A stretch of 64,000 bases of DNA, from the sequence record NC_047776.2; one strand, given 5' to 3'. A program made the position numbers and the translations under genes. The DNA comes from Escherichia phage ESCO5. Positions 1,580-36,042 of the stretch are shown one piece after another. Under the pieces are notes generated by a model. It did no database searches, had not been told where the DNA came from, and was given only the letters and a program-made list of their open reading frames with translations. Each line of letters begins with the position of its first letter. Positions within the stretch are counted from its first letter, which is position 1.

Positions 1580-2581
1580 ATGCCAGCAGTAATTTTAGAT
1601 CAGGTTGTAGATTTCAGCCCTATGATCGAACTTCAGGATTCCCCTGATACACTGATTGCCAGCCTGAATCTGTTCAGCGTTGACTATCATTCAACTACCG
1701 CTATTGAAATCGGTAAAGAAAAAGCTGAAGATGCGCTGATCTCCGCTCGTGAGCGTGGTGGTGAGCGTAACTTCCTGACCATGAAAAATCCAGAACTGAA
1801 AGCGTTCCGTATTCCGTTCTTCCCTCTGGATAAAAACATCAAAGCTCAAGATATTCAATCTTTCCGTAGCTTTGCGATGGCAGGAATCAATGACTCTCTG
1901 CGCACAGACGCTGAAGTTGTTAACCGCTATATGTCCCAGATTCTGCGTGACGTAGCAAAAACCAAAGAGAAAATCTTTGCAGAAGCAGTTATGGGTCGTG
2001 CCTATAACGGCGTAGGTGGTGCAGCTAACTCTGCATACAACTGGTATACCGAGTGGAATGCTACCCAGAAATCTGTTGCTGTAGACTTTGCTTCTACCAC
2101 TGTTTCTCCAGCAGCCACTATCGAGCAAGAAGCTCGTGCTTACATCATCGATACTAAACAAGATGGCTCTACCGCTACTCGTATCGTAGCTCTGTGTTCT
2201 CGTGAATTTTTCGCATCTCTGGTTAACTCTCCATTTGTTCGCCAGGCATATCAGTATTTCCAAGGAACTCCTAACCTTCTGCGTGACCGCCTTAGCGGTA
2301 ACATGGATGTTCAGGTGTTCGAATGGAACGGTGTAACTTACATTGAAGATATCCACGGTAACATCCCTGCTGGTGAAGCATATGTTCTGCCTATGGGTAT
2401 CGAAGGTATGTTCCAGGCGCACTACGCTCCTGCGGATACTCCAGAACTGGCTAACACCCAGGCTCGTGAACTGTATACCTTCATGATCAGCCAGCACCGC
2501 ACCATTCAGCTTCAGTCTGAATTCTCGCTGCTCGCAGTTAACACCCGTCCAGAACTGGTAGTTAAACTGACTACGGCTTAA
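1580..2581 (+). CDS. major capsid protein (lambda gpE-like family)
   Basis: 333 aa; RBS TAGGAGATTAA; C-terminal LANTQARELYTF parallels lambda gpE LGNTQARGLRTYG at same distance from C-terminus; followed by strong terminator. Confidence 0.8.
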   Translation: MPAVILDQVVDFSPMIELQDSPDTLIASLNLFSVDYHSTTAIEIGKEKAEDALISARERGGERNFLTMKNPELKAFRIPFFPLDKNIKAQDIQSFRSFAMAGINDSLRTDAEVVNRYMSQILRDVAKTKEKIFAEAVMGRAYNGVGGAANSAYNWYTEWNATQKSVAVDFASTTVSPAATIEQEARAYIIDTKQDGSTATRIVALCSREFFASLVNSPFVRQAYQYFQGTPNLLRDRLSGNMDVQVFEWNGVTYIEDIHGNIPAGEAYVLPMGIEGMFQAHYAPADTPELANTQARELYTFMISQHRTIQLQSEFSLLAVNTRPELVVKLTTA

Positions 2582-2602
2582 CAGAACTCTGTTAATATTA
2601 GA

Positions 2603-2635
2603 GGCTCGTCCGTGATGGGCGAGCCTTTTCTGTTT
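2603..2635 (+). terminator. rho-independent terminator after capsid gene
   Basis: GGCTCGTCC-gtgat-GGGCGAGCC 9-bp stem followed by TTTTCTGTTT. Confidence 0.7.
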
Positions 2636-2665
2636 ACAACAAGAGTTTACAATGAGGAGATTGAT

Positions 2666-3010
2666 ATGTCAAACCCAGAATTGAAACGTTACTTTAGTTA
2701 TCACGAAATGATTCGTGATTTCGAATCGCTTTCACCACTGATTGATGCTGATAAAACATTAGTATCTGCGCCACCAATGTCTTTCTATCTGAAAGATGGT
2801 CGTATTGCATTAGGTGGAAACTTCATTCACTTCCTCACACGTTTGAGAGAAGAAACAGGTATTCTTGTGCATCCTTTTGCAAGTGAAGAACACATGGGTT
2901 ACTATCTTGTAAGTTACGAAGATTATGCACCTGTAAAAATCAAAGAAGAAGTTTTAAAAGTAGAAGCGGTAGACACTCCAGCTAAAAAACGTTCCCTTCG
3001 TAAAAAATAA
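2666..3010 (+). CDS. hypothetical head/neck protein
   Basis: Track ORF starts at 2612 inside the terminator hairpin; internal ATG at 2666 has GAGGAG RBS 6 nt upstream, so start moved. Confidence 0.6.
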   Translation: MSNPELKRYFSYHEMIRDFESLSPLIDADKTLVSAPPMSFYLKDGRIALGGNFIHFLTRLREETGILVHPFASEEHMGYYLVSYEDYAPVKIKEEVLKVEAVDTPAKKRSLRKK

Positions 3011-3019
3011 GGTGGGCTT

Positions 3020-3568
3020 ATGCTGAATGCGGTAGAGTTGGCACCACTGATCCGAATTCTTGTTTATAACCCTTCTCAAGAAGTATTGCCAGATGCAATG
3101 CTGATTCAGATCATCCAGACTTGGATTGATATTATAGGGAATGAAGATAAGGATAAGTGTGCAGTATTGTGGAACAGCTTGATTTCTGTTTTAGAGTATT
3201 TATGGAACAACGATGTTCTTAATAACAATACTCAAACAGGAGGGGCTATGTCTCGCAGAGAAAAGATGGGTGAAGTCGAAGTTGAAGTTAAATTTAACAA
3301 CGGTCAAGTAACTTATAAGTCTCCGTGGGAAGATATTTATCATAACTATTTAAATGGTCTTATGGTTATTCCTGGGTGCACGGCAGGACGAGGAGCAACC
3401 AGTAAAGTTCTTATTGGTGGTGTTGATGCTCGTGAGATTGATCGAGTAAACAGCGATCCTAACTCTGTAAATGGTCTTGGTAATGTTGCAAGTGTTGATC
3501 GTAATACACGCAACGTTAATTATTTGCGAAATTATGGACCTGTTTCTTTTTATCGTAGGGACAAATAA
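3020..3568 (+). CDS. hypothetical structural (head-tail joining region) protein
   Basis: 182 aa ORF with AAGGTGGG RBS, in structural operon. Confidence 0.6.
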   Translation: MLNAVELAPLIRILVYNPSQEVLPDAMLIQIIQTWIDIIGNEDKDKCAVLWNSLISVLEYLWNNDVLNNNTQTGGAMSRREKMGEVEVEVKFNNGQVTYKSPWEDIYHNYLNGLMVIPGCTAGRGATSKVLIGGVDAREIDRVNSDPNSVNGLGNVASVDRNTRNVNYLRNYGPVSFYRRDK

Positions 3569-4056
3569 TGGAAAGTGAGATCTTACCAGGTGATGATACG
3601 GATTGGGAAACCATTATCAAAAAGATGATGGACCTTGAACAAGTTCAAATCGAAGCTGGTTTTTTAACAAACAAAAGGCATCCTGAATCAGATCTCACTA
3701 TTCCTGCAATAGCAGCTATTCAACAATATGGTAATGAAACAAATAACATACCTGCTCGCCCTTTTATAACAGATGGCGCTGTTATCTCACAGAACAATAT
3801 CGCTAAAAAGATGAAGCAGGTGTTTGCAAATTACTTAATGAATAATGTCGGGTTAGCTGTTTTTGAGCCTATAGCGAGAGCCTCTAGAGAAGGAATAGCT
3901 CAAGCGATTGCAATGCAACGTTATCGTCCTTTATCTCCTGTGACAATTAAGATACGACAAGATAAAGGCAACTATTCTAATCATATCTTAATAGATACGG
4001 CACACATGATAAATGCAATCGAAACAAAAATCACAAAAAGCAAGTCTAAAAAATAA
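3568..4056 (+). CDS. hypothetical structural protein
   Basis: 162 aa; start overlaps upstream stop (TAATG). Confidence 0.6.
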   Translation: MESEILPGDDTDWETIIKKMMDLEQVQIEAGFLTNKRHPESDLTIPAIAAIQQYGNETNNIPARPFITDGAVISQNNIAKKMKQVFANYLMNNVGLAVFEPIARASREGIAQAIAMQRYRPLSPVTIKIRQDKGNYSNHILIDTAHMINAIETKITKSKSKK

Positions 4057-4101
4057 CTTGCATAAACTTTGTTTTTGATGTATACTAAAAAGGAGATACA
4101 A

Positions 4102-4518
4102 GTGTTACTAGATCAATTTACTCTCCTTGATCTAACTGAATACCAAGGTCGTAGACGAGTCTACAAAGAGGCGGTTGGTTCAGTTATTGCTAACTTAGAA
4201 AGTAGTGTAGAATATGAACCATTTACTATTGAAGCGGCAAGCTTACAACCGATATCTGGTAAAACACTGAATGCACTACCTGAAGGTTACAGATCTAAGG
4301 CTCAATATAGTTTCTGGACTAAAACAGAAATGAAGGGGTTACAACAAGGAACAGAACAGTTATCAGATCAGATATTGATAGATGGTAAATGGTATTCTGT
4401 TTATTCCCTTAAAAATTGGACCAGAACATCTTTCTTAGTCCATCATCACTGTGTTGCAATATTAGACGATCAAAACAACTCCTGGTCTTATGGAACAGAA
4501 GGAGGAAACTTTGGCTAA
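4102..4518 (+). CDS. hypothetical structural protein
   Basis: GTG start preceded by AAGGAGA RBS; track start 4069 (TTG) lacks RBS. Confidence 0.55.
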   Translation: MLLDQFTLLDLTEYQGRRRVYKEAVGSVIANLESSVEYEPFTIEAASLQPISGKTLNALPEGYRSKAQYSFWTKTEMKGLQQGTEQLSDQILIDGKWYSVYSLKNWTRTSFLVHHHCVAILDDQNNSWSYGTEGGNFG

Positions 4519-5149
4519 TATTTACCAACAAATAGAAGCATACGAAAATGCCATCTACTTAAATATAGGTGGCTTCCTTCAAGAATTAGTGGGGTTGCCA
4601 GTCTATGTTATGGATAAGCCATTCATTAAACCGGATACTCCTTACCTAGCACTACGTATTATCACTTCCAGCGATTCTGGAGGTTGGTCTTACCGAAGCT
4701 CTATTCAAAATGATATGTATTCCTACGAGATGGATAATACCTACGAGATTGAACTTGTAGCCTATCGTGGAAGACCTACCACTTTGATGAGCTATGTTCT
4801 GGCTGCTCTCCGTGGTGCAGAGGAATTAAAATACAAACATCTCTATTCTAAAGGTCTTGGTTTTTTAGGAGCCTCTAATATAGCTCAAGCCAATACGATT
4901 GTAGACGGAGATAAGACTGAATTAAGAGCGCGTATGGTTATGACGTTCAACACTCGTATGAGTATTGAAGATATTGCTACTACACCAATAGAAGCAATCA
5001 ACATGCACATCCGTTCATTCAGAGATAGTTACAATGATCCTATCCCTTTAGATTTAATTCTAAACAGGGTTTATGCAATTACTTTGGTTCCAGGCGAATA
5101 CTCGTCAGTTAATCAAAATGGATCATTATTTAACAACCCTACCGAATAA
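4490..5149 (+). CDS. hypothetical neck/tail completion protein
   Basis: 219 aa; overlaps upstream gene end; alternative TTG start at 4511 behind AAGGAGG. Confidence 0.55.
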   Translation: MEQKEETLANIYQQIEAYENAIYLNIGGFLQELVGLPVYVMDKPFIKPDTPYLALRIITSSDSGGWSYRSSIQNDMYSYEMDNTYEIELVAYRGRPTTLMSYVLAALRGAEELKYKHLYSKGLGFLGASNIAQANTIVDGDKTELRARMVMTFNTRMSIEDIATTPIEAINMHIRSFRDSYNDPIPLDLILNRVYAITLVPGEYSSVNQNGSLFNNPTE

Positions 5150-5183
5150 ACTCATTGGAATTAAGTTTCTAACAGGAGCATAA

Positions 5184-6557
5184 ATGGCAACTTTTCGTGA
5201 AAAGGTAGCAACCGTAACTTTACTGTATGGTGCTACATCAATTCGTGAAACCCAGTTCGATATTCCTCTGATCCTTACAGGTCAGAACGTAACTGGCGAA
5301 GCGATTCAATATTACTCTTCTTCCGATGCACTTTTGGAAGCAGGTTATGGATTAAATGATCCAGCGTATATTATGGCAGTCAAACTGTTTAACGGTTTGT
5401 TCCCACCAGATCAAGTCATGGTTGGTAAGCGTGAAGTTACAAACTTTACTCTAACTCCAATCGTAGAAGATAGTGCAACTTACACAATTACCATCAAAAA
5501 TGGTACCAAGAAAAAAGAATTTAAATTCATTGCTGATGACACTGCAACTGCACAAGAGATTGTAGTTGGTCTGACTGAAATGATCAATGCAGATCTTGTT
5601 TATGGCCCACTGTTTACAGTAGCTAACAACGGCGCTGCAATGACTTTCACTCCAGTAGAAGGTAAGTTTGGTTCTATTGACAGCACAGGTTTCACTCAAG
5701 AAACTGTCTATGCTAATGCTATTACGGAAGATATTGCTGCTCTGCATGATATTGATAGTAGCTGGTTCTGGACCCTTTCAGATTCCCATGAAACAGAAGA
5801 TATTCTAGCTTTGGCTGCATGGGTAGAAGAGAATGATAAAGTTTACTTCTTCTCTAGTTCTGAACCTGGAATTAAAACGAAAGCAGAAGATAACGTTCTG
5901 GAACGACTGAATGACCTCGGTTATAATAACACTTGCTTTGCATTGTGGATGACCGATGCAGATTCTGTATTCCCAGAAGCAGCAGTTGTTGGTGCTATCT
6001 GTTCTCGTCAACCTGGTTTAACTACCCTTCACGGTAAAACACTGGTAGGCGTAGAGATCGAGAAACTGGATCAGACTTCGGAAAACAATATTGTTCAACA
6101 GAACGGTAACATCTATCGTAAAGAGCATGGAACTCTGTTCTATCGTGATGGATTGATGGTTAGCGGTTTCTTTGTTGACTATGTTGTTCATGCTTTGTGG
6201 TTTAAAGCTCGCACAGAAGAATCACTGTTTACACTGTTTAAACAACAGTCTATGCTGGGTGGTGGTGTTCGTGCTACTTCAAACGGTCTGGCTTTGATTC
6301 GACAAGCTGTTCTGGCTAACCCGATCCAAGTAGGTATCCTCAACGGTTCCATCGCTAATGAAGTTGTTACTTCTGAAGAGACTGGTTTGCGTGTCGATCT
6401 GAAACCTATTGTTTATATTCCTTCTCGTGCCGATATGACCGATGCGCAAATCAATGCTCGTCTGGTTGATGGGATGAAGATTGAATATGTTTACGCTGGC
6501 TTCTTCCATTACGTTAAAGTTCAGGTCAACGTCCTGACTAACCGTACTGCAAACTAA
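5184..6557 (+). CDS. tail sheath protein
   Basis: 457 aa; AGGAG RBS; size and position immediately upstream of tube, chaperone and tape measure genes. Confidence 0.65.
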   Translation: MATFREKVATVTLLYGATSIRETQFDIPLILTGQNVTGEAIQYYSSSDALLEAGYGLNDPAYIMAVKLFNGLFPPDQVMVGKREVTNFTLTPIVEDSATYTITIKNGTKKKEFKFIADDTATAQEIVVGLTEMINADLVYGPLFTVANNGAAMTFTPVEGKFGSIDSTGFTQETVYANAITEDIAALHDIDSSWFWTLSDSHETEDILALAAWVEENDKVYFFSSSEPGIKTKAEDNVLERLNDLGYNNTCFALWMTDADSVFPEAAVVGAICSRQPGLTTLHGKTLVGVEIEKLDQTSENNIVQQNGNIYRKEHGTLFYRDGLMVSGFFVDYVVHALWFKARTEESLFTLFKQQSMLGGGVRATSNGLALIRQAVLANPIQVGILNGSIANEVVTSEETGLRVDLKPIVYIPSRADMTDAQINARLVDGMKIEYVYAGFFHYVKVQVNVLTNRTAN

Positions 6558-7897: not shown

Positions 7898-9886
7898 TTG
7901 TTAGAAATTAACGCCTCCAAAATTAGTAACGTGGTTACGTTTAAGGTGGACAAGAACAGTCTCAAGGAAGCAAAAGATGCCGTGTTGAGTGTTCAGAAGT
8001 TTGCAAATAAAATGCAACCCACTATGAACATGACCAAGTTTAGACAACAAATGAAAGAGATTGAGCGTGAACTTAAGAAAGCTCAAACTCAAAGTCAAAA
8101 ACCTATGCGAGCACCTACTCCCGCTGGAGCGGGTGCTCCTGTAGGCGGATCTGGCAGACCTAGAACTCCTAAAACCCCGCAAGGAAGAGAAGAAGAAAAA
8201 GCTCGTAAAGCTGCTGAACGCGAAGCTAAAGCAGCAGCACGTAGGGAAGACTTAGGTAATCTTCGTTTGCAGAACTTTAACTATCGAGCAAGAGCATTTA
8301 GTAAAGCCAGTCCTGGCGCTATGCAAGAAGCTAGAGACGTTATGGGTAAAGCTGTAGAGCAATACAAAAAGGGTGAAATAACTCTTCAACGTATGAACCA
8401 AGCTCTTGCTCACCAGTTAGATGCTTTACGCAGATCGCATCGTGAAAAGAATGCTGAAATAGAAGACGAGGTTCGTGGTCGCCGTCGTATTCGTAGAGAG
8501 CTAGAAGCAGAAGCTAAAACCCGTATACGTATGCGAAATCGTGAACTTAGAGATATAGAACGCAACCGTAAGCGTGAATTAGCTCAACAAAGACGTGATC
8601 GTGATCGTCGATATGGACAATTAAAAGAAGGTGCGGCAGGTCTTAATCCACGCATGATTGCATCCTCTTTGATCGGTGCTGGGTTATTTGCAGGGGGTTC
8701 TGTAGTTGGTAACACTTTGATGAATACTAACGAAAGGATTAAACTTGTAAGCCGTGGTGCTGAAAACGTTCAGACAAACGCCAACGCTATTTTGGCAATG
8801 ACAGCTTGGGGTGAACAGAACGGTGTAGACTCTGCAAATATTATTAAGTCAATAGATAATATTAAAGACGTTCGTGAACGTCTTGGTAATACAGTTTTAG
8901 CCTCAAAATGGAATGAGAAAGAAGGGAAGTGGAAAGGCGGTGATAATGGCATAAATGACATTATGAACTTGTTTGGATGGAATCCAGAACAGCTTAAACC
9001 TTTACAGAACGATCCTTTGGCTTTTATTCAGGCTACTGTTAATGAAGGTGAGCGTCGAGGTATGAACTCTGCTCAAATCGGGCGACTTCTTGAAAACCTT
9101 GGTGATGACCTTATGCACTACCAACGTATGTTTAGTAAAAACGGCGAAGGGTATAATGAAGTATTGAAAATGCTTCAAAGAACAGGTGCAACATTAACTC
9201 AAGAACAAATAGATGCTTCTAAAGAGTTTACTCGTTTTGCTGCAACAGTTCAGCTTGTAGGTCAAGGTATGCAGAACCATTTCTTAGAGGGTTTTGTGAA
9301 AGCCTTACCTAAAGATGATTCTTGGTTGGATAACGTTAAAGTGCTAGATCAGTTTGCCAAAGATTTAGGTGAAGAACTTGGTAAGACAACAGTTCAATTA
9401 GGAGGTTTTGCTAAAGAATTGGGAGATGGTTTCGGATCTTTTACCAATTGGCTTAAAGAGACATTCCCAGACACCTTCGGAGACAACACAGATCCTAATA
9501 AATCTATGGCACAAAAGGCATATGAGGCAACGCAAAGTGGAGACAGCAATCCTGTAGCAGATTGGTTGTACAATTTAACAGGTATTGATACACAAGATGT
9601 TGGTCGTATGTGGAGAGGAGAACAAACAAGGACACGTGCTTTTGGATTTGGTAATCCTCTTGAAGATTTACGTGAATCAGCCTATACACCTAACGTAAGT
9701 TTGGCTCGTAATCAACCTATTGTTGAGAATACGGTAGCAATACCAAGTGATCTTATCAAAGTTACGATCAGCCCTTCTTCAGAGTTTGGAAATATTCTTG
9801 ATGCAAGAATTCAAAATAGCGGAAATAGCATTTTCCAACGTTTATCTCTTTCAACTCTAAGTGGACAATCTAACACTGGTGGTTAA
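7898..9886 (+). CDS. tail tape measure protein
   Basis: 662 aa; TTG start with GAGGA RBS; Arg/Glu-rich coiled-coil region; hydrophobic segment MIASSLIGAGLFAGGSVVG; position after chaperones. Confidence 0.7.
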   Translation: MLEINASKISNVVTFKVDKNSLKEAKDAVLSVQKFANKMQPTMNMTKFRQQMKEIERELKKAQTQSQKPMRAPTPAGAGAPVGGSGRPRTPKTPQGREEEKARKAAEREAKAAARREDLGNLRLQNFNYRARAFSKASPGAMQEARDVMGKAVEQYKKGEITLQRMNQALAHQLDALRRSHREKNAEIEDEVRGRRRIRRELEAEAKTRIRMRNRELRDIERNRKRELAQQRRDRDRRYGQLKEGAAGLNPRMIASSLIGAGLFAGGSVVGNTLMNTNERIKLVSRGAENVQTNANAILAMTAWGEQNGVDSANIIKSIDNIKDVRERLGNTVLASKWNEKEGKWKGGDNGINDIMNLFGWNPEQLKPLQNDPLAFIQATVNEGERRGMNSAQIGRLLENLGDDLMHYQRMFSKNGEGYNEVLKMLQRTGATLTQEQIDASKEFTRFAATVQLVGQGMQNHFLEGFVKALPKDDSWLDNVKVLDQFAKDLGEELGKTTVQLGGFAKELGDGFGSFTNWLKETFPDTFGDNTDPNKSMAQKAYEATQSGDSNPVADWLYNLTGIDTQDVGRMWRGEQTRTRAFGFGNPLEDLRESAYTPNVSLARNQPIVENTVAIPSDLIKVTISPSSEFGNILDARIQNSGNSIFQRLSLSTLSGQSNTGG

Positions 9887-29311: not shown

Positions 29312-31336
29312 ATGAATTTAACAAGACCTAATAGTGCGATAGCCGATCTAGTAGAAGCTACTTATCGAAAACGTCGCAGTTTTGAGGCAGGTTTTACATT
29401 ACGTAATTCCCGTGAAGTTTTGCTGTTAGCGGCAGAAGGGAATTATTACCAATGGAAAGGAACTTTTCCTAAAGTAGTTCCAGCAAACTCTACGCCAGCC
29501 ACCACAGGTGGTATTTCTTCCCTTGCATGGCAAAGTGTTGGGACCGCTGATGATATAGCAATTATCAATGCCAAGTTTACGGCAATGCAGCAACAGATTG
29601 ATGATCTGTCGGAAACAATACCTGAAGCTGGTAAATCGGCTTATCAGATCGCACTTGATAATGGTTTTGTTGGAACAGAAGCACAATGGCTTGCTTCTTT
29701 GAAAGGGGATACTGGTGCTCAACTTAATATTAAAGGATCATTAGCAAGCACTAGTGAACTACCATCTACAGGTAACGTAGCAGGTGATGGTTATATTGTA
29801 GGAGATGTAATCTACGCTTGGGATGGGGCTGTTTGGAAACTTATCTCTTCTCTTGGGCCAGAAGGGAAATCAGCTTACGAGGTATGGTTAGCAGATGGTA
29901 ATACAGGATCTGTTTATGACTTTCTTGCCTCTATAAAAGGTGATAAAGGAGACGTTGGTCCTACAGGTCCACAGGGTGCACCTGGTGTCAACGCTAATGG
30001 TTTTGATTACCGTGGAGATTTGCCTTCTACAAGTAACTTACCACAACCTAACTCTGAAAACGTAAGCCAAGCTTATTCTATTAATGGTAATCTTTATGTC
30101 TCTAATGGGACAGCTTGGGTCAACATGGGTAATATTGTTGGTCCTCAAGGTCCACAAGGTGAGGCAGGTAAAGACGGTCTAGATGGAACAGATGGAGACG
30201 AAGGGAAATCTGCATATCAAAGTTGGCTGGATGCTGGTAATGAAGGGACAGAAGTAGATTTTATTGCCTCACTTAAAGGTCCAAAAGGAGACAAGGGTGA
30301 TCAAGGAGAGCGAGGTCCACAAGGTGAACTAGGTCCACAAGGACCAGTGGGTGCAACAGGATCAGGTTTAGAGATTATCGGGGTTCTGAACAGCGAAGCT
30401 GAACTTCCTCCTACTGGAGAAGTAGGTGATGCATATAAAATTAATAATGATTTGTATGTTTGGGTTCAAGATGCTACAGAATGGATGAATGTAGGCAGTC
30501 TTGGAGGAACATCAATTACAGCTAAAGGTCATGTTCCGAACAGTGAAGCTCTCCCTGTTTATAATAACTACGGTGATGCCTATTTAACTGAAGACACTAG
30601 TAATCTTTACATCTATACCTACGATCAAGACACCAATTCCGCATCTTTTGTTGACATGGGAAGTATTAAAGGCGACAAAGGTGAAAAAGGGGATAAAGGA
30701 GATAAGGGTGATCCTGGAACAAACGGAACCAACGGTACTGATGGGACCAACGGTAAGGACGGCGCACAGTGGTTTGTAGCAACAACTAATCCAGTCACAG
30801 GAGACGGTGTTATCAATGATTACGCCTTCAATACTACCACTGGAGCAGTATTTAAGAAAACAGATTCTTCTACGTGGACACTTATAGGAACTCTTCCTAG
30901 TATACCAGAAGCCCCTCAAGACGGCTTGACGTATGGTCGTTCTGATGGAAACTGGATCGAAATATCAGGATCAGATCCTACGGAAGCTATAACACCAACT
31001 AGAGTTACAGCAGGTTTCATGGAACTTGAAACAACTACTGCCAACTCTGGAGCATCTTGGACTCCTTCTGGAACTTCCAATATGTATGTTGTTACAGTAA
31101 CTGACGCTCTGACAGTTGGAGCATGGCCTGGTGTCACTGGCTCTACAAAACCTAAAGCGTTTTCAGCAATGATTTATTTGATTCAAGATACAACGGGACA
31201 CACGGTTACACTAGATGCGTCTTATGGAGCACTAAATGATACAGAAATAGCAACTACTGCTAACGCAGTAACAATTTTGCAATTAACGTATCCTGGTGTG
31301 GGTGATATCGTGGACATGGTTGTTGTAACACGATAA
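29312..31336 (+). CDS. tail fibre with collagen-like Gly-X-Y repeats
   Basis: 674 aa; runs such as GPQGPQGEAGKDGLDGTDGDEG and KGDKGEKGDKGDKGDPGTNGTNGTDGTNGKDG; three copies of GKSAY...(W)L(A)S(L)KG(D)KGD repeat. Confidence 0.7.
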   Translation: MNLTRPNSAIADLVEATYRKRRSFEAGFTLRNSREVLLLAAEGNYYQWKGTFPKVVPANSTPATTGGISSLAWQSVGTADDIAIINAKFTAMQQQIDDLSETIPEAGKSAYQIALDNGFVGTEAQWLASLKGDTGAQLNIKGSLASTSELPSTGNVAGDGYIVGDVIYAWDGAVWKLISSLGPEGKSAYEVWLADGNTGSVYDFLASIKGDKGDVGPTGPQGAPGVNANGFDYRGDLPSTSNLPQPNSENVSQAYSINGNLYVSNGTAWVNMGNIVGPQGPQGEAGKDGLDGTDGDEGKSAYQSWLDAGNEGTEVDFIASLKGPKGDKGDQGERGPQGELGPQGPVGATGSGLEIIGVLNSEAELPPTGEVGDAYKINNDLYVWVQDATEWMNVGSLGGTSITAKGHVPNSEALPVYNNYGDAYLTEDTSNLYIYTYDQDTNSASFVDMGSIKGDKGEKGDKGDKGDPGTNGTNGTDGTNGKDGAQWFVATTNPVTGDGVINDYAFNTTTGAVFKKTDSSTWTLIGTLPSIPEAPQDGLTYGRSDGNWIEISGSDPTEAITPTRVTAGFMELETTTANSGASWTPSGTSNMYVVTVTDALTVGAWPGVTGSTKPKAFSAMIYLIQDTTGHTVTLDASYGALNDTEIATTANAVTILQLTYPGVGDIVDMVVVTR

Positions 31337-31339
31337 CAG

Positions 31340-31366
31340 AAGCCCCGAAAGGGGCTTTCTTTTTAT
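31340..31366 (+). terminator. rho-independent terminator
   Basis: AAGCCCC-gaaa-GGGGCTT followed by TCTTTTTAT. Confidence 0.65.
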
Positions 31367-31377
31367 GGAGGGTTTAA

Positions 31378-34050
31378 ATGTTTCCAATTCCAATATTTAC
31401 TATTATGACCAGCACTGGTGTCGTTCCTCTGCCAGCAGGTATTGTTAAAAAAGTAATCACTCTAGATTACCCAGATAATGCTGGCAATTCTAATAGCAGT
31501 TTAGCAATTTTGCTTAATGATGGTAGATTGTTTACTCAAGGCGCAAACCTTTTTGGTGAGATTGCAGATGGAACTCGTAGTGCACGATTCAATAATTTCC
31601 ACTTAGCTTCTACTGTAGTAGCGGATGTGTTTACCGCAGATCGTTGTTTTGTTATTAAAACTAACAGTGGGGGATGGCAATATTCAGGATTGACAGCAGG
31701 GTTGGTAGGATCTATAGCAGCAGGTGGTACGGATGCATGTGTAACTACTTGGACCAGCTTTCCATCTGTAATAACAGGGACTATCTCTTTAGCCAATCTT
31801 AAAGAGGTTAAGGGAGGATATAACAACACTCTCTGGTTGATGAATAGTGGTGTTCTTTATGGATCAGGTCAAAACACAGTAGGCAGTTTAGGTGCAAGTA
31901 CTACTAACGAAGTTTCTACTCCTCGTCAGATAACAAGTGCAGCAGTTGCTTTTGATGCAGGTTACAACCAATGCTCTTATGTCAACAATGTGGGAACCTT
32001 GCGTGTTTGTGGGGCTAGTAAAGGTTTAGCAGGTAATAATAACACAACAACAGCTTTTGTCAATGCCAAGATATCCGCTACTGAAACAGTGTATGTCAAA
32101 GATTACATCAATACAGTTTCCCAGACAATAGTTGTAGGAGATACCTCCGGTGGCACGGGTACAGTAAACTACTTATATGTTAGATCTAATACAGAAACAA
32201 CCTACACTAAACTGGACACCTTTGCAGCAGGTTTCTCAACATGGAAATTTCCACCAAGCCGCCACTCTTTTTTCGTTGGGATCAATAATTCCTTGTGGGC
32301 TATTGGTAAGAACTACACTGCAAACTTAGGTTTGGGGTATGATTCTGCGAGCGGAGATCCACTCCAAGTGGGAAAACCAGTTAAACCTGAAGGAGTGGGT
32401 TCCTGGGATATAAACAAGCTCACAAGCGTTCATACACTGAATATGGATGTTACTAACCAATTAGGTTATCAAGGAACCTTTTTCGTTTATAATGGAGATA
32501 TGTATTATTCAGGTATTTGGAAAGATGGGAAAGCCTCGTATCTGTTCAATAGTGGTCTAAACTATAATAAATTCACACCAATAGCAAGCTCCGTGATTAC
32601 AGGGGATGTTCTGGCAACTGGCTTAACTACAGATTCTTTAGGAATTTGTATTGTAGGTGGAACTAAACAGTTGACACATTCTGTTAGCCCAGAAGGAGGT
32701 AAACTTTTCAATATTAAATACACTTCTTCTGCCCCTGCAAACATGACAATATCATCTACTGGTTTAATGACTTTCCATGCAGAAGGTGGTTTTGATGCAG
32801 GTATGACAGCCTTAAACGCTGAAGGAACAATTTTATCAGATACCTCTGGAGGATATGCTTCAACATTGAGTGTTTACACCCCTAGCTTATCTGCGATGGA
32901 TGTAGGAACAACACAAACAATGGTAGCAGAAATAACACCAACAGGAGCAGCAAGCTTACCTGATATGGTTGTTGAGTATACAACTACAGATCCTAATGTT
33001 GCTACAGTAGATCCTACAACTGGTGTAATAACTGGTGTTGGTGATGGTGGTTGTAGGATTGGTTGCACAGCTACGTATCAAGGTGTTGTTACCGCTTCTG
33101 ATAGTTCTTATTTAACGGTGAATGCTGTTGCGGGAAAGGAGTTAGCTCCATCTCCGAGTAGTAGTTTAACGGTTCTAAACGGATATTTCAACCACTCGGC
33201 AGATGGGGCAATTACGTTCCCAACTTTATCGGGTACTGTTACACCAGCTAACTTTGTAGTTAAGGTGGATGACGTTGTAGTTCCTTCAAGTAAAGTAATA
33301 TTTAGAAACAAAGCTTTCTCTACAGTGGATAGTTATCCAGCAGGAGAATATAGACTGGCTATTGAATTTGCAAGTGCTTCAGTAGTTAATAGTGTGGAAG
33401 TGTCTATGGAAGCAAACCCAAGTCTTTTAGAACTTTGGGGCGGTAATAGAATCAGTTATTCTACAAGCCCAGCCTCACAATTCTTAAAAGGTTGTGCTAA
33501 CTTAAGACGAATAACTTCTGATTGTTTTAGTAACACATCTTACACCGGAACATCTATAAGCGGTATCTTCTCTGGCTGCACAAGTTTGACAGCTATCCCT
33601 GAAGGATTATTCAGTGATGCTTTATTTCCTTCAATGACAACAATGTCAAGCACGTTTGAAGGTTGTACATCTTTAACATCTATTCCTTCAGATTTATTTA
33701 AGAATCTGTCAAAAGTTACAAGATATTCTTACACCTTTAAAGATTGCACCTCTCTTGCAGAAGTTCCAGCAGGAATGTTTGATAATATTCCAACGAAAGT
33801 GACCTCTTTAACAGCTACATTCCAAGGTTGTTTAGGACTTACAGATTTTAATAAGATCTTTAATGACAACCCAGGGTTAACTGTTTGTGGTAAACGTGGA
33901 GCATTATCTTCTTTCTTTAGTGGATGCACAAATCTTACAGGAACAGGAACAACATTAACAAATACATTAGGCGGAGTAGCTAATAGTTACCTATTCAGGT
34001 ATTGCACAAAACTTTCTGATTATAACAACATTCCTTCCGGTTATAAATAA
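31378..34050 (+). CDS. tail fibre with Ig-like (Big_2-type) and BspA-type leucine-rich repeat C-terminal domain
   Basis: 890 aa; repeated FxGCTSLTxIPxxLF units (CANLRRITSDCF, GCTSLTAIPEGLF, GCTSLTSIPSDLF, DCTSLAEVPAGMF, GCLGLTDF); TTDPNVATVDPTTGVITGVGDGG Ig-like segment. Confidence 0.6.
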   Translation: MFPIPIFTIMTSTGVVPLPAGIVKKVITLDYPDNAGNSNSSLAILLNDGRLFTQGANLFGEIADGTRSARFNNFHLASTVVADVFTADRCFVIKTNSGGWQYSGLTAGLVGSIAAGGTDACVTTWTSFPSVITGTISLANLKEVKGGYNNTLWLMNSGVLYGSGQNTVGSLGASTTNEVSTPRQITSAAVAFDAGYNQCSYVNNVGTLRVCGASKGLAGNNNTTTAFVNAKISATETVYVKDYINTVSQTIVVGDTSGGTGTVNYLYVRSNTETTYTKLDTFAAGFSTWKFPPSRHSFFVGINNSLWAIGKNYTANLGLGYDSASGDPLQVGKPVKPEGVGSWDINKLTSVHTLNMDVTNQLGYQGTFFVYNGDMYYSGIWKDGKASYLFNSGLNYNKFTPIASSVITGDVLATGLTTDSLGICIVGGTKQLTHSVSPEGGKLFNIKYTSSAPANMTISSTGLMTFHAEGGFDAGMTALNAEGTILSDTSGGYASTLSVYTPSLSAMDVGTTQTMVAEITPTGAASLPDMVVEYTTTDPNVATVDPTTGVITGVGDGGCRIGCTATYQGVVTASDSSYLTVNAVAGKELAPSPSSSLTVLNGYFNHSADGAITFPTLSGTVTPANFVVKVDDVVVPSSKVIFRNKAFSTVDSYPAGEYRLAIEFASASVVNSVEVSMEANPSLLELWGGNRISYSTSPASQFLKGCANLRRITSDCFSNTSYTGTSISGIFSGCTSLTAIPEGLFSDALFPSMTTMSSTFEGCTSLTSIPSDLFKNLSKVTRYSYTFKDCTSLAEVPAGMFDNIPTKVTSLTATFQGCLGLTDFNKIFNDNPGLTVCGKRGALSSFFSGCTNLTGTGTTLTNTLGGVANSYLFRYCTKLSDYNNIPSGYK

Positions 34051-34052
34051 GA

Positions 34053-34080
34053 AAAGGAGCCATTTGGCTCCTTTCTTTTA
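34053..34080. terminator. bidirectional terminator between convergent arms
   Basis: AAAGGAGCC-attt-GGCTCCTTT with T-rich tracts on both sides; plus-strand gene ends 34050, minus-strand gene ends 34107. Confidence 0.75.
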
Positions 34081-34106
34081 TAAAAACTCTTTATAAATCA
34101 ATAAGA

Positions 34107-34994
34107 TCAGAACGGAATATCATCATCGAAGTCCATCGGAGGTTCTTCTTGATTACTTGGAGTTGGTTCTGGTTGTGGTTCAGGCTTTTTAACTTCTTTC
34201 TTCTCTTCTTTCTTAGGTTGTTCTGCGGAACCACGAATGGCAGCAGCAACTTTATCAGACAGAGCCAGAACTTTACGAGCAGAATCAATCAGATCTTCTA
34301 CAGATACAGTCTTAATGGTATGGTCTTTACAAGCATTAAGGATAGCGTGACCAACAGATGCCCCAAGATCATAATCATTAATATCAACGCCACGAGATTC
34401 AGCAATTTCAGATTTCAGCGTGACAGTTGCAGATTGAACAACCCCAGCGATATCGAAAGCATCGCCTTTAACACCATTACGAATCAGTTCCAGTGCACCA
34501 TTTACTGCGTGACCAGTTTCCAGACCTACAGTATCACGTTTTTTATAGGACTGTTTAGGAGCAGCATCGTTGGAACCTTTATTGCCAGAAGATTTGTTAG
34601 ACTTCTGAACACCATCGGTAGACAATACTGTAATACGAGATTTTTTAGTATTGTAGTAAGTTTTACCGCCTTTATTATCAACGCGATCAATATCAATACT
34701 TACTTCTACACCTTTTTCAATAGTGATCCAGTTATCACCTTCTTTGACTTGCAGGTTTTCATAACCTTCTTTCAGTTCAATGTCACCAAGAGAAATCCAA
34801 ACACCTTTCTCCTCTGGTTTAGCACCTTTCTCTTTCAGAACAAGAGAAGCTCGGTGAGTTGAAACAATCGTTTTTCCTTCCCAATGAAAAGTTTTAGGTT
34901 CAGCGAATTTATCCAGTTTAACGTAGTCTACGATACCAGTTGCATAAGTTACGGTTTTGCCTTTACGATCAGTTTCAGTATTAATTACGGACAT
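34107..34994 (-). CDS. ssb: single-stranded DNA-binding protein
   Basis: 295 aa; C-terminus EEPPMDFDDDIPF identical to the E. coli SSB tail motif; Gly/Ser/Lys-rich linker; N-terminal domain divergent. Confidence 0.75.
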   Translation of the reverse strand: MSVINTETDRKGKTVTYATGIVDYVKLDKFAEPKTFHWEGKTIVSTHRASLVLKEKGAKPEEKGVWISLGDIELKEGYENLQVKEGDNWITIEKGVEVSIDIDRVDNKGGKTYYNTKKSRITVLSTDGVQKSNKSSGNKGSNDAAPKQSYKKRDTVGLETGHAVNGALELIRNGVKGDAFDIAGVVQSATVTLKSEIAESRGVDINDYDLGASVGHAILNACKDHTIKTVSVEDLIDSARKVLALSDKVAAAIRGSAEQPKKEEKKEVKKPEPQPEPTPSNQEEPPMDFDDDIPF

Positions 34995-35010
34995 TATTAT
35001 CTCCTCTATA

Positions 35011-35403
35011 TTACATTAATTTTGCACAGAAAGAGCGGAGTCTTTCCATATCATCTTGCTCTAACAGGTATTTACCTTTACCTATTCCAACTCCAATTTC
35101 ACCGTTAGGGAAATGAACTATTTGCACTGGAAAACCTCCGAGTTTAATTGTGGCAGCTTTGCCTTCTTCGTCTATAACGTTTCGGATTGTATCTTGCAGT
35201 GAAATGAATTCTTTGTTTGTAACAGTGGCTTCAATTATTTCAGAGGTTTCAACACGAGCCGTTAGCTTCTTGTCTCCACCTTGAATAATCAAAATTTGAA
35301 AATAAAAAGAGTTGTCAAGACCTACAACATTTTTCTCAACTAGTGTCAAACTGGTATAATTTCCATAAACAGTTTCAACAGCTATTTTAGAACGTTCAGT
35401 CAT
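35011..35403 (-). CDS. hypothetical protein
   Basis: 130 aa ORF in replication arm. Confidence 0.5.
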   Translation of the reverse strand: MTERSKIAVETVYGNYTSLTLVEKNVVGLDNSFYFQILIIQGGDKKLTARVETSEIIEATVTNKEFISLQDTIRNVIDEEGKAATIKLGGFPVQIVHFPNGEIGVGIGKGKYLLEQDDMERLRSFCAKLM

Positions 35404-35448
35404 TGAATGCTATCCTATCATAAAATGTTTAATATTGTCAAGCTTTAA

Positions 35449-36042
35449 TTACCAAGGAATATCTTCTTCTTCCAATTTGGTATCTACTTGAGGTGGACGT
35501 GGAACCTTAACCTCTTTAACAAAACGAAGATATGGAAAACGTGTAGCGATTTTAATAACATGTTTGGCATCTTCTCTAACATCTTTGTGCAAGAAGCAGA
35601 TCCCTGTTTCCAAAGTTGTTTCAAAATCTTTAGAGTAATAACAATCCTTTCCATCAAATGCAGCCTGGCAGATGGACAGATCAAACTCATTCAGAAAGGT
35701 TGTCATTACATTTGGGTCCATAATCATAAGGTTGCAAAGCTGACCGTCACGTTCAAATTCAAAAACGTGTTTAAGACCAGTAACACCCTCGTAGTTATCA
35801 GAAGCCTCTTTGTTTCCTAGCTTACGAACATTAGTTCCCATTAAAGCAGATGCAATTAGTTCTTGTATTTGCTCTTCTGATCGATGTGCAGGAAGTGACG
35901 TATAGAAATCCAGATCACGTCCAGCAATATCAAGAATACGCCAATCACGAACAGCACCGCCAGCCAAGACAGAATTAGGATCAGCGATCTTTAAGACAGT
36001 AAGAATTTCTTTGGCAATGTTGATTTGTTTTGATTTAGTCAT
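35449..36042 (-). CDS. minimal nucleotidyltransferase (CCA-adding / poly(A) polymerase head-domain type)
   Basis: 197 aa; motif VLAGGAVRDWRILDIAGRDLDFYT matches the GGAVRD...RDxD signature of class II tRNA nucleotidyltransferases. Confidence 0.6.
   Translation of the reverse strand: MTKSKQINIAKEILTVLKIADPNSVLAGGAVRDWRILDIAGRDLDFYTSLPAHRSEEQIQELIASALMGTNVRKLGNKEASDNYEGVTGLKHVFEFERDGQLCNLMIMDPNVMTTFLNEFDLSICQAAFDGKDCYYSKDFETTLETGICFLHKDVREDAKHVIKIATRFPYLRFVKEVKVPRPPQVDTKLEEEDIPW

Follow-up and report, generated by a model that had tools for sequence, protein, structure and literature searches.

Both leucine-rich repeat (LRR) domains and modular receptor-binding proteins of phages are known already. 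Here, we study a gene of Escherichia phage ESCO5 that lies within a stretch of 64,000 nt (sequence record NC_047776.2; "the window" in the following) and encodes a protein of 890 amino acids (aa) with an LRR domain at its C-terminus. The respective open reading frame (ORF), taken from a program-made ORF list, starts with ATG and covers 2,673 bp of the + strand (31378..34050). In Escherichia phage vB_EcoM_REC (Stephanstirmvirinae, Phapecoctavirus), a product with 100% identity is annotated as 'hypothetical protein' (REC_00253; OM386667.1). What is new is that the part of this gene marked in a preliminary description of the sequence (32980-34050) is an exchangeable cassette.

Related systems

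The closest known relatives of the C-terminal repeats are BspA/TpLRR-type bacterial LRR surface proteins (LRR_5, PF13306; 6mlx TpLRR, 4fs7 BACOVA_04585, 4gt6). The BspA-type LRR signature is F-x-x-C-x-x-L-x-x-I-x-(I)P, and the unit of the studied tip (F-x-x-C-x-x-L-T-x-I-P-x-x-L-F; REC-type in the following) resembles the BspA/TpLRR head. The tip differs from these proteins in that the full motif is present in 3/7 units only, the LRR_5 profile stays below its cutoff, and the repeats belong to a phage tail protein and not to the bacterial surface. Furthermore, the LRR_5 repeat is shorter than the 26-32-residue period of the REC tip. A similar period is known from the 26-residue DUF285/PARCEL/TIGR02167 repeat (PMC2996958), to which the REC tip shows sub-threshold matches; REC-type tips, in contrast, are without its W-D/N-x-S-x-V-T-x-M signature.

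Among phages, phAPEC8 gp180, ESCO37 and phiWec179 TfpM1 (891 aa) share the gene position, a near-equal length and the scaffold (98% or 76% identity, aa 1-584), but their last 307 aa are unrelated to the REC tip. The name TfpM1 (890 or 891 aa) stems from a 2025 paper, which reports the protein in Phapecoctavirus and the proposed 'Wecvirus' and its absence from phi92-like phages, and which nowhere mentions LRR, RCC1 or Ig-like domains (PMC12695924). A second relative is the 'tail protein I' of a Klebsiella P2-like prophage (Reipivirus ST16-OXA48phi5.4 gp35, 1008 aa, locus 2523-5549), i.e., a tail/baseplate protein in which Big_2 domains are followed by BspA-type LRRs and which is 32.6% identical to aa 705-889 of the 890-aa protein. 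It differs by its Tail_P2_I anchor in place of an RCC1-like propeller and by more repeat stretches, and its LRRs do pass the profile cutoffs (LRR_5 41.3 bits, DUF285 32.3 bits, LRR_8 also above threshold). Finally, the modular receptor-binding proteins of rV5/phi92-like phages (PMC8594841) and the Tail_spike_N branched tailspike complexes likewise combine a conserved proximal with a variable distal part and are co-encoded with several fibres or spikes. In contrast to the tip studied here, the known tips of the rV5/phi92-like group are mostly glycan-hydrolysing or glycan-binding, with no LRR tip reported in the literature found.

Given these comparisons and the results below, we consider the 890-aa gene to encode a modular tail appendage protein of a phAPEC8-like myovirus, in which a conserved scaffold carries an exchangeable tip of ~306 aa made of a beta-sandwich and LRRs. 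We assign this reading a probability of roughly 0.6. Directly shown by our analysis are the assigned folds, the boundaries of the cassette and the mosaic in which the tips are distributed; these results are presented first, based on the following features.

31378..34050, + strand: ORF of 890 aa (REC_00253 / 'TfpM1'), last gene of the tail-fibre/tailspike cluster; identity to OM386667.1, annotation, context, phrog_11922
31399..32580, + strand: RCC1-like seven-bladed beta-propeller (aa ~8-401), conserved scaffold and presumed attachment part; Pfam, AlphaFold2 model, Foldseek
32620..32877, + strand: first Ig-like (Big_2) domain (aa ~415-500); two Pfam Big_2 stretches, AlphaFold2 strand pattern
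32890..33123, + strand: second Ig-like (Big_2) domain (aa ~505-582); best Pfam Big_2 stretch at aa 505-565, AlphaFold2 model
32958..33137, + strand: left recombination zone of the cassette; identity drop versus phAPEC8, end of protein homology at aa 584
33130..33141, + strand: hinge between scaffold and tip (aa 585-588); predicted local distance difference test (pLDDT) <50 in the full-length model, coincides with the end of phAPEC8 homology
33169..33435, + strand: beta-sandwich domain (aa ~598-686), first half of the tip cassette; strands 13-101 of the AlphaFold2 tip model (model numbering), full-length model
33481..34047, + strand: LRR solenoid of seven units (aa 702-890); unit starts 702, 731, 760, 787, 815, 847, 873

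Cassette exchange and mosaic of tips

The cassette is delimited by comparison with phAPEC8. That is, phAPEC8 gp180 (891 aa) is 98% identical to the 890-aa protein over aa 1-584 and unrelated beyond. On the DNA level, a sliding profile gives 98-100% identity up to 32957, 70-75% at 32958-33137, background values up to 34037 and again 87-100% from ~34040. The cassette covers ~32958..34050, with its left junction within the second Ig domain and its right junction at a terminator-like hairpin (34053-34074). Given these identity zones, the coordinates of the preliminary description almost exactly equal the exchangeable module.

Next, we surveyed 41 scaffold homologues for their tips. Where the first 400 residues of the scaffold are identical, the LRR tip (134 sequences in the cluster) as well as the phAPEC8-type tip (112) is found, and in addition a variant that is 63% identical to the latter. 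The same two alternatives are observed for scaffolds of 76-86% identity, where LRR tips are 90-97% and phAPEC8-type tips 97-98% identical, and LRR tips of 45-67% identity are present on scaffolds as distant as 52-57%. Three divergent orthologous scaffolds (P0287, P0288, P0294) end in tips that score 126-145 bits on DUF285 and show the repeat signature of that family. Tip-less orthologues of 564-609 aa are known as PVP-SE1-like and Salmonella-phage forms. The same scaffold is thus found in at least three states, i.e., with an LRR-type tip (REC-type or classical DUF285), with a phAPEC8-type tip or without any. Near-identical phages can differ in this respect, as 536P1 and DIJ07P2 have the LRR tip and DIJ07P1 has the phAPEC8-type tip. 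Among deposited phages, the full-length LRR tip is present in 34 records and the phAPEC8-type tip in about 60. The latter (last 307 aa) matches no Pfam family and has ~24-29% identity to a protein region in Kagunavirus siphophages infecting E. coli.

The phiWec phages provide a further case. In phiWec179, a scaffold of 76% identity is joined to a phAPEC8-type tip of 98.7% identity; phiWec190 has the LRR tip (90.4%), and for phiWec188 the whole gene is matched at 80% DNA identity. The two proposed 'Wecvirus' species are set apart by this full tip replacement in TfpM1 (phiWec179 phAPEC8-type vs. phiWec188/190 LRR). The paper describing them calls the C-terminal differences of TfpM1 only slight (PMC12695924); judged from the sequences, they represent a complete domain replacement, which corrects the published wording.

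Deletion variants are also found. A phapecoctavirus contig from SRR10359460 (Logan) shows an in-frame deletion of 3,548 bp between window positions 29533 and 33081, located at a microhomology of ~24 nt. The resulting ORF of 396 aa (P0001; contig 8001-9191) joins window 29312-29533 to 33081-34050, i.e., it starts with the initial 74 codons of the upstream tailspike (Tail_spike_N) and continues in frame with the final part of the second Ig domain and the sandwich-LRR tip. On both sides of the junction, the contig is collinear with the window. It appears to represent a natural deletion variant (3.5 kb), and the fusion of Tail_spike_N and tip is compatible with the tip being an autonomous module. 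Another ORF (P0292, 573 aa, from a 60-kb Logan contig) joins scaffold aa 1-246 (97% identity) to the sandwich-LRR tip (93-98%). Compared to the full-length protein, this ORF is shortened by part of the propeller and by most of the Ig region, due to either an internal deletion or an assembly artefact.

Predicted structure of scaffold and tip

The full-length AlphaFold2 model (pLDDT 87.3) shows a propeller with seven four-stranded blades. Pfam RCC1 (PF00415) matches with 24.2 bits (cutoff 21.7), and WD40_RLD matches the propeller with E=7.9e-11 (42.3 bits), where the whole-domain cutoff of 150 is not reached. When the propeller is compared with the PDB using Foldseek, UVR8, HERC2, RPGR and RCC1 are found with E-values down to 9e-14 and a target TM-score of 0.71; no solved phage tail protein of the same architecture was among the PDB matches. 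The propeller is followed by Ig-like domains, for which Pfam Big_2 (PF02368) reports two stretches with 35.8 bits (cutoff 22.8). The Ig-like string TTDPNVATVDPTTGVITGVGDGG, already recognised as such in the preliminary description, corresponds to aa 536-558 (32983-33051) and lies within the second Big_2 domain.

A trimeric fibre or spike fold (triple beta-helix, coiled coil, beta-helix spike) was not found in the monomer model, which contains only the propeller, the Ig domains, the sandwich and the LRRs. Since none of these modelled folds is a trimeric fibre fold, 'modular tail appendage' seems to be the better term. In its classical sense, the earlier label 'fibre' is doubtful on the basis of the model.

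For the tip alone, AlphaFold2 yields a model with a pLDDT of 91.2. Its sandwich (aa ~598-686) has no Pfam family above the respective cutoff. The second half is predicted to fold into a curved solenoid of tandem repeats with a parallel beta-sheet and with a short helical segment at aa 824-839. At fold level, this places it in the LRR superfamily, which is defined by tandem repeats of 20-30 residues. Structure prediction had been set beforehand as the test that could refute the proposed C-terminal BspA-type LRR domain, and it returned the solenoid at the expected place, i.e., behind the Big_2 domains of a tail-cluster protein.

We also evaluated the repeats on the sequence level. F-x-x-C heads start at aa 731, 760, 787, 815, 847 and 873, which results, together with the variant head FLKGC at 702, in seven units with a period of 26-32 residues. 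All six F..C and all six F..C..L heads lie within aa 691-890, and aa 1-690 are free of these patterns. When aa 691-890 were shuffled 20,000 times, the maxima were 5 (F..C) and 2 (F..C..L), such that a count of six was never obtained for either pattern. The complete motif C..L..[IV]P..[LM]F is restricted to 3/7 units (aa 734, 763, 790), the other four being degenerate; likewise, the full BspA-type signature is found in 3/7 units (aa 731, 760, 787) and the F..C head in 6/7. That is, the repeats proposed earlier are real and even number seven, but the motif quoted for five or more of them holds for three.

Two family labels were considered and rejected. The DUF285 label for the REC tip is not confirmed, as a hidden Markov model built from the classical DUF285 tips gives no hit and hhalign reports a probability of 67% (E=5e-5, 72 columns). 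Precomputed 'PF23011' domains in homologues are spurious PHD-finger matches to the Cys-containing repeats.

Role of the tip

Next, we consider what the protein may do. The position in the fibre cluster, the conserved proximal part and the exchanged distal part are in line with a host-recognition appendage. On the genomic level, the protein has the features of a phage receptor-binding tail fibre, i.e., a tail-fibre-module gene with a conserved proximal and an exchangeable distal part, and the rV5-type orthologue is annotated as lateral tail fibre protein in BASEL. A function in the tail also agrees with the phrog_11922 match, with the natural fusion of Tail_spike_N to the tip and with the gpI-Big_2-LRR_5 protein of the Klebsiella prophage. 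The tip is probably an accessory host-binding module. In the mechanism we propose, the propeller end would anchor the protein in a multivalent fibre apparatus at the baseplate and the Ig domains would act as spacers. The LRR tip would then bind a structure of the bacterial surface, as one of several accessory adhesins and not as the essential receptor binder. Homologous recombination during co-infection may swap the alleles between phages, with the conserved Ig-coding DNA serving as the left and the terminator/SSB region as the right site of exchange. A multivalent branched apparatus formed by many fibre proteins has been argued for this phage group in general (BASEL, PMC8594841).

The accessory status is suggested by isolation hosts. 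Phages with either tip were obtained on the same strain, namely REC/ESCO37 on BEN4358, nepoznato/tuntematon vs. nieznany/alia on K-12 MG1655 and ECO340P2 vs. ECO340P1 on Shigella DA340. Thus, the tip alone does not determine infection, and it is best regarded as an accessory adhesin of a multivalent apparatus. The phiWec groups have different reported secondary receptors (flagella vs. YhaH); this difference parallels the tip allele, but TfpL differs too such that it is only a lead.

Several results weigh against this picture of an LRR-tipped, host-binding appendage. The tip misses the cutoffs of all respective profiles: Pfam LRR_5 (PF13306) reaches 16.0 bits (E=0.011, aa 535-890; cutoff 27.7), DUF285 (PF03382) 12.8-14.2 bits (cutoff 25) and the PARCEL repeat TIGR02167, which is the best NCBIfam match, 21.9 bits (cutoff 30). 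Of the profile searches suggested earlier, the one for Big_2 was thus positive and the one for LRR_5 was not. With scores below the LRR_5, DUF285 and PARCEL cutoffs, a family assignment has to go beyond single-sequence profile search; among the matches listed, precomputed PF13306 domains are present on 24/120 homologues. Because the thresholds were failed, we do not place the tip in Pfam LRR_5 or DUF285 and describe its repeat, based on the model, as an LRR at fold level that is BspA/TpLRR-like. Per-position variability among 15 LRR-tip sequences is not concentrated at particular repeat positions or at obvious ligand-binding positions. Given that the modelled domains include no trimeric fibre fold, any attachment mode of the 890-aa protein is presently guesswork. 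The rV5 proteomics text does not list the orthologue, which is evidence neither for nor against its presence in the virion. And since phages of either allele infect the same laboratory hosts, the tip's contribution to infection may be small in the laboratory.

Origin and alternative readings of the tip

The preliminary description considered LRR tips uncommon in phage fibres and suggested acquisition from the host. Concerning rarity, tblastn of the tip against 50,697 deposited phage genomes finds similarity in three lineages only, and our literature search yielded only coincidental matches and no paper describing an LRR tip on a phage fibre. On the other hand, in BFVD and metagenomes the names 'leucine-rich repeat protein' and 'BspA family LRR surface protein' are already given to many phage proteins. 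In BFVD, such proteins belong to many uncultured Caudoviricetes, a crAss-like phage and Aeromonas phage D3, and Klebsiella phage Eowyn gp353 and Bacillus phage G gp353 match structurally without bearing the name. PARCEL and BspA ORFs were reported for a Vibrio jumbo phage in 2020, and the Klebsiella prophage protein introduced above even fuses gpI, Big_2 and LRR_5. LRR domains thus recur in phage genomes, and among those found none is characterised; the claim of rarity is supported in part. Within IMG/VR, a scan with the single tip protein gave no match. Back-translated motifs did, i.e., CTSLTSIPEGLF in 3 contigs and LTSIPEGLF in 6, but such motifs are too strict for a frequency estimate. Klebsiella phage records matching the tip number 14, of which the 12 listed (~37-38 kb each) carry 7-8 LRR-like stretches that match it.

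A recent capture of the tip from a bacterial surface adhesin of the host would be in line with the abundance of BspA/DUF285-type repeats in bacterial surface proteins (14,240 representative clusters, many of 2,000-7,000 aa and with up to 25 repeat stretches), with the description of PARCEL/DUF285 repeats as horizontally distributed (PMC2996958) and with the somewhat low GC content of the LRR part (35.5% vs. 39.2% for the window). The latter difference, as well as that between tip and scaffold (37.3% vs. 40.3%), is too small to be used as a sign of foreign origin. Moreover, blastn of the tip DNA against 5,426 complete E. coli genomes gave no match, and a scan of 185,579 GTDB species representatives, sensitive to close relatives only, returned two loci, namely one 100% identical and one at 30% identity in a Bacteroidales metagenome-assembled genome (MAG). 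The identical locus is JAEZZU010000064.1, a 43.5-kb contig in 'MAG: Proteobacteria bacterium OH_PFB_59' with the gene order of the window; the contig is a phage sequence that was mis-binned in a GTDB species representative. Of the nearest non-orthologous relatives (~35-43% identity), three were examined, of which one is accompanied by terminase and tape-measure genes on a phage contig, one lies on a phage-like contig of 157 kb and one in a Caudoviricetes record. With no E. coli match, phage-borne relatives and divergent orthologues that already end in LRR/DUF285 tips, a recent capture from an E. coli host is not supported by the sequence data, and we regard it as very unlikely. Instead, since scaffold orthologues of as little as 52-57% identity end in LRR tips, and others in classical DUF285 tips, the association of LRR tip and scaffold is old within the phage group. 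The repeat class as such is common to bacteria and phages; older transfers may have gone either way.

The ligand of the tip could also be environmental or of animal origin. BspA itself adheres to fibronectin and fibrinogen, and a tip that binds, e.g., mucin or extracellular matrix could retain the phage at the gut mucosa, similar to what has been proposed for Ig-like decorations of capsids. Such a function would agree with the adhesin-like, beads-on-a-string architecture with Big_2 domains, with the many homologues from gut metagenome phages, with the existence of tip-less orthologues and deletion variants and with either tip allele being found on phages from the same isolation strains. We still deem it unlikely, since the gene is part of a tail-fibre cluster, its exchange pattern is typical of receptor-binding proteins, and the alternative phAPEC8-type tip is related to a protein region of Kagunavirus coliphages. 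About equally doubtful is a role inside the virion or during its assembly, i.e., docking to a fibre or an assembly factor in place of receptor binding. LRRs are classical protein-interaction scaffolds. An apparatus that is branched and built from many fibre proteins (PMC8594841) would offer partners for such a module. But a docking domain is expected to be conserved, and here it is the tip that varies and the N-terminal scaffold that is conserved; furthermore, a swap for an unrelated fold in near-identical phages would break a structural interface. Compared to these two alternatives, it is somewhat less improbable, albeit still rather unlikely, that the LRR tip recognises a protein ligand, be it a protein or appendage of the bacterial surface or a mucosal or matrix protein of an animal.

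Genomic setting

The 890-aa protein matches phrog_11922 'tail protein' end to end (1357 bits). According to the paper describing REC, this phage is a laboratory recombinant of ESCO5 and ESCO37, with the region of the 890-aa gene in an ESCO5-derived segment. Following the annotation of OM386667.1, the gene is the last one of a same-strand cluster, whose other products are a tail fibre and a fibre assembly protein, a gpH-domain protein, an endo-N-acetylneuraminidase, a colanic-acid-degrading protein and a 674-aa tailspike. Beyond it lie, on the opposite strand, the SSB and replication genes. The gene is flanked by two hairpins, and for both a terminator is annotated at the equivalent place in phAPEC8.

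31339..31358, + strand: terminator-like hairpin between the stop of the 674-aa tailspike (31336) and the start of the 890-aa ORF; pattern scan, consensus match only
34053..34074, no strand: bidirectional terminator-like hairpin directly after the stop, between convergent genes, at the right cassette edge; pattern scan

Three further observations concern the surroundings. The sign of the GC skew flips at ~34000-36000, exactly where the tail cluster (+) gives way to the SSB/replication genes (-). In the upstream 674-aa 'tail spike protein' (29312-31336), a Tail_spike_N anchor is combined with four collagen-like Gly-X-Y stretches and with several modules of ~60-70 aa that are repeated internally; the protein matches 81 PHROG families. 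Finally, some phapecoctavirus genomes that are 89-99% alike in the 890-aa gene carry non-Escherichia host labels (Campylobacter phage B15, Pseudomonas phage PsgM04F, Acinetobacter phage ABPW7, Klebsiella phage ZCKP1). These odd labels on near-identical phages could reflect real breadth or contaminant and carry-over phages.

Implications

With this analysis, a concrete fold and exact swap boundaries are assigned to one so far unannotated tail protein. Since LRRs are engineerable scaffolds and near-isogenic phages with different tips exist (ESCO5/REC vs. ESCO37; phiWec188/190 vs. phiWec179), the part of the LRR tip in host recognition is directly testable. If the tip indeed recognised a protein ligand, it would be a natural, cassette-exchangeable, repebody-like binding module on a virulent coliphage and, as such, a receptor-binding fold class not yet characterised in any phage. 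For Phapecoctaviruses, which are broad-host-range therapeutic candidates, what is at stake is the division of labour among their fibres.

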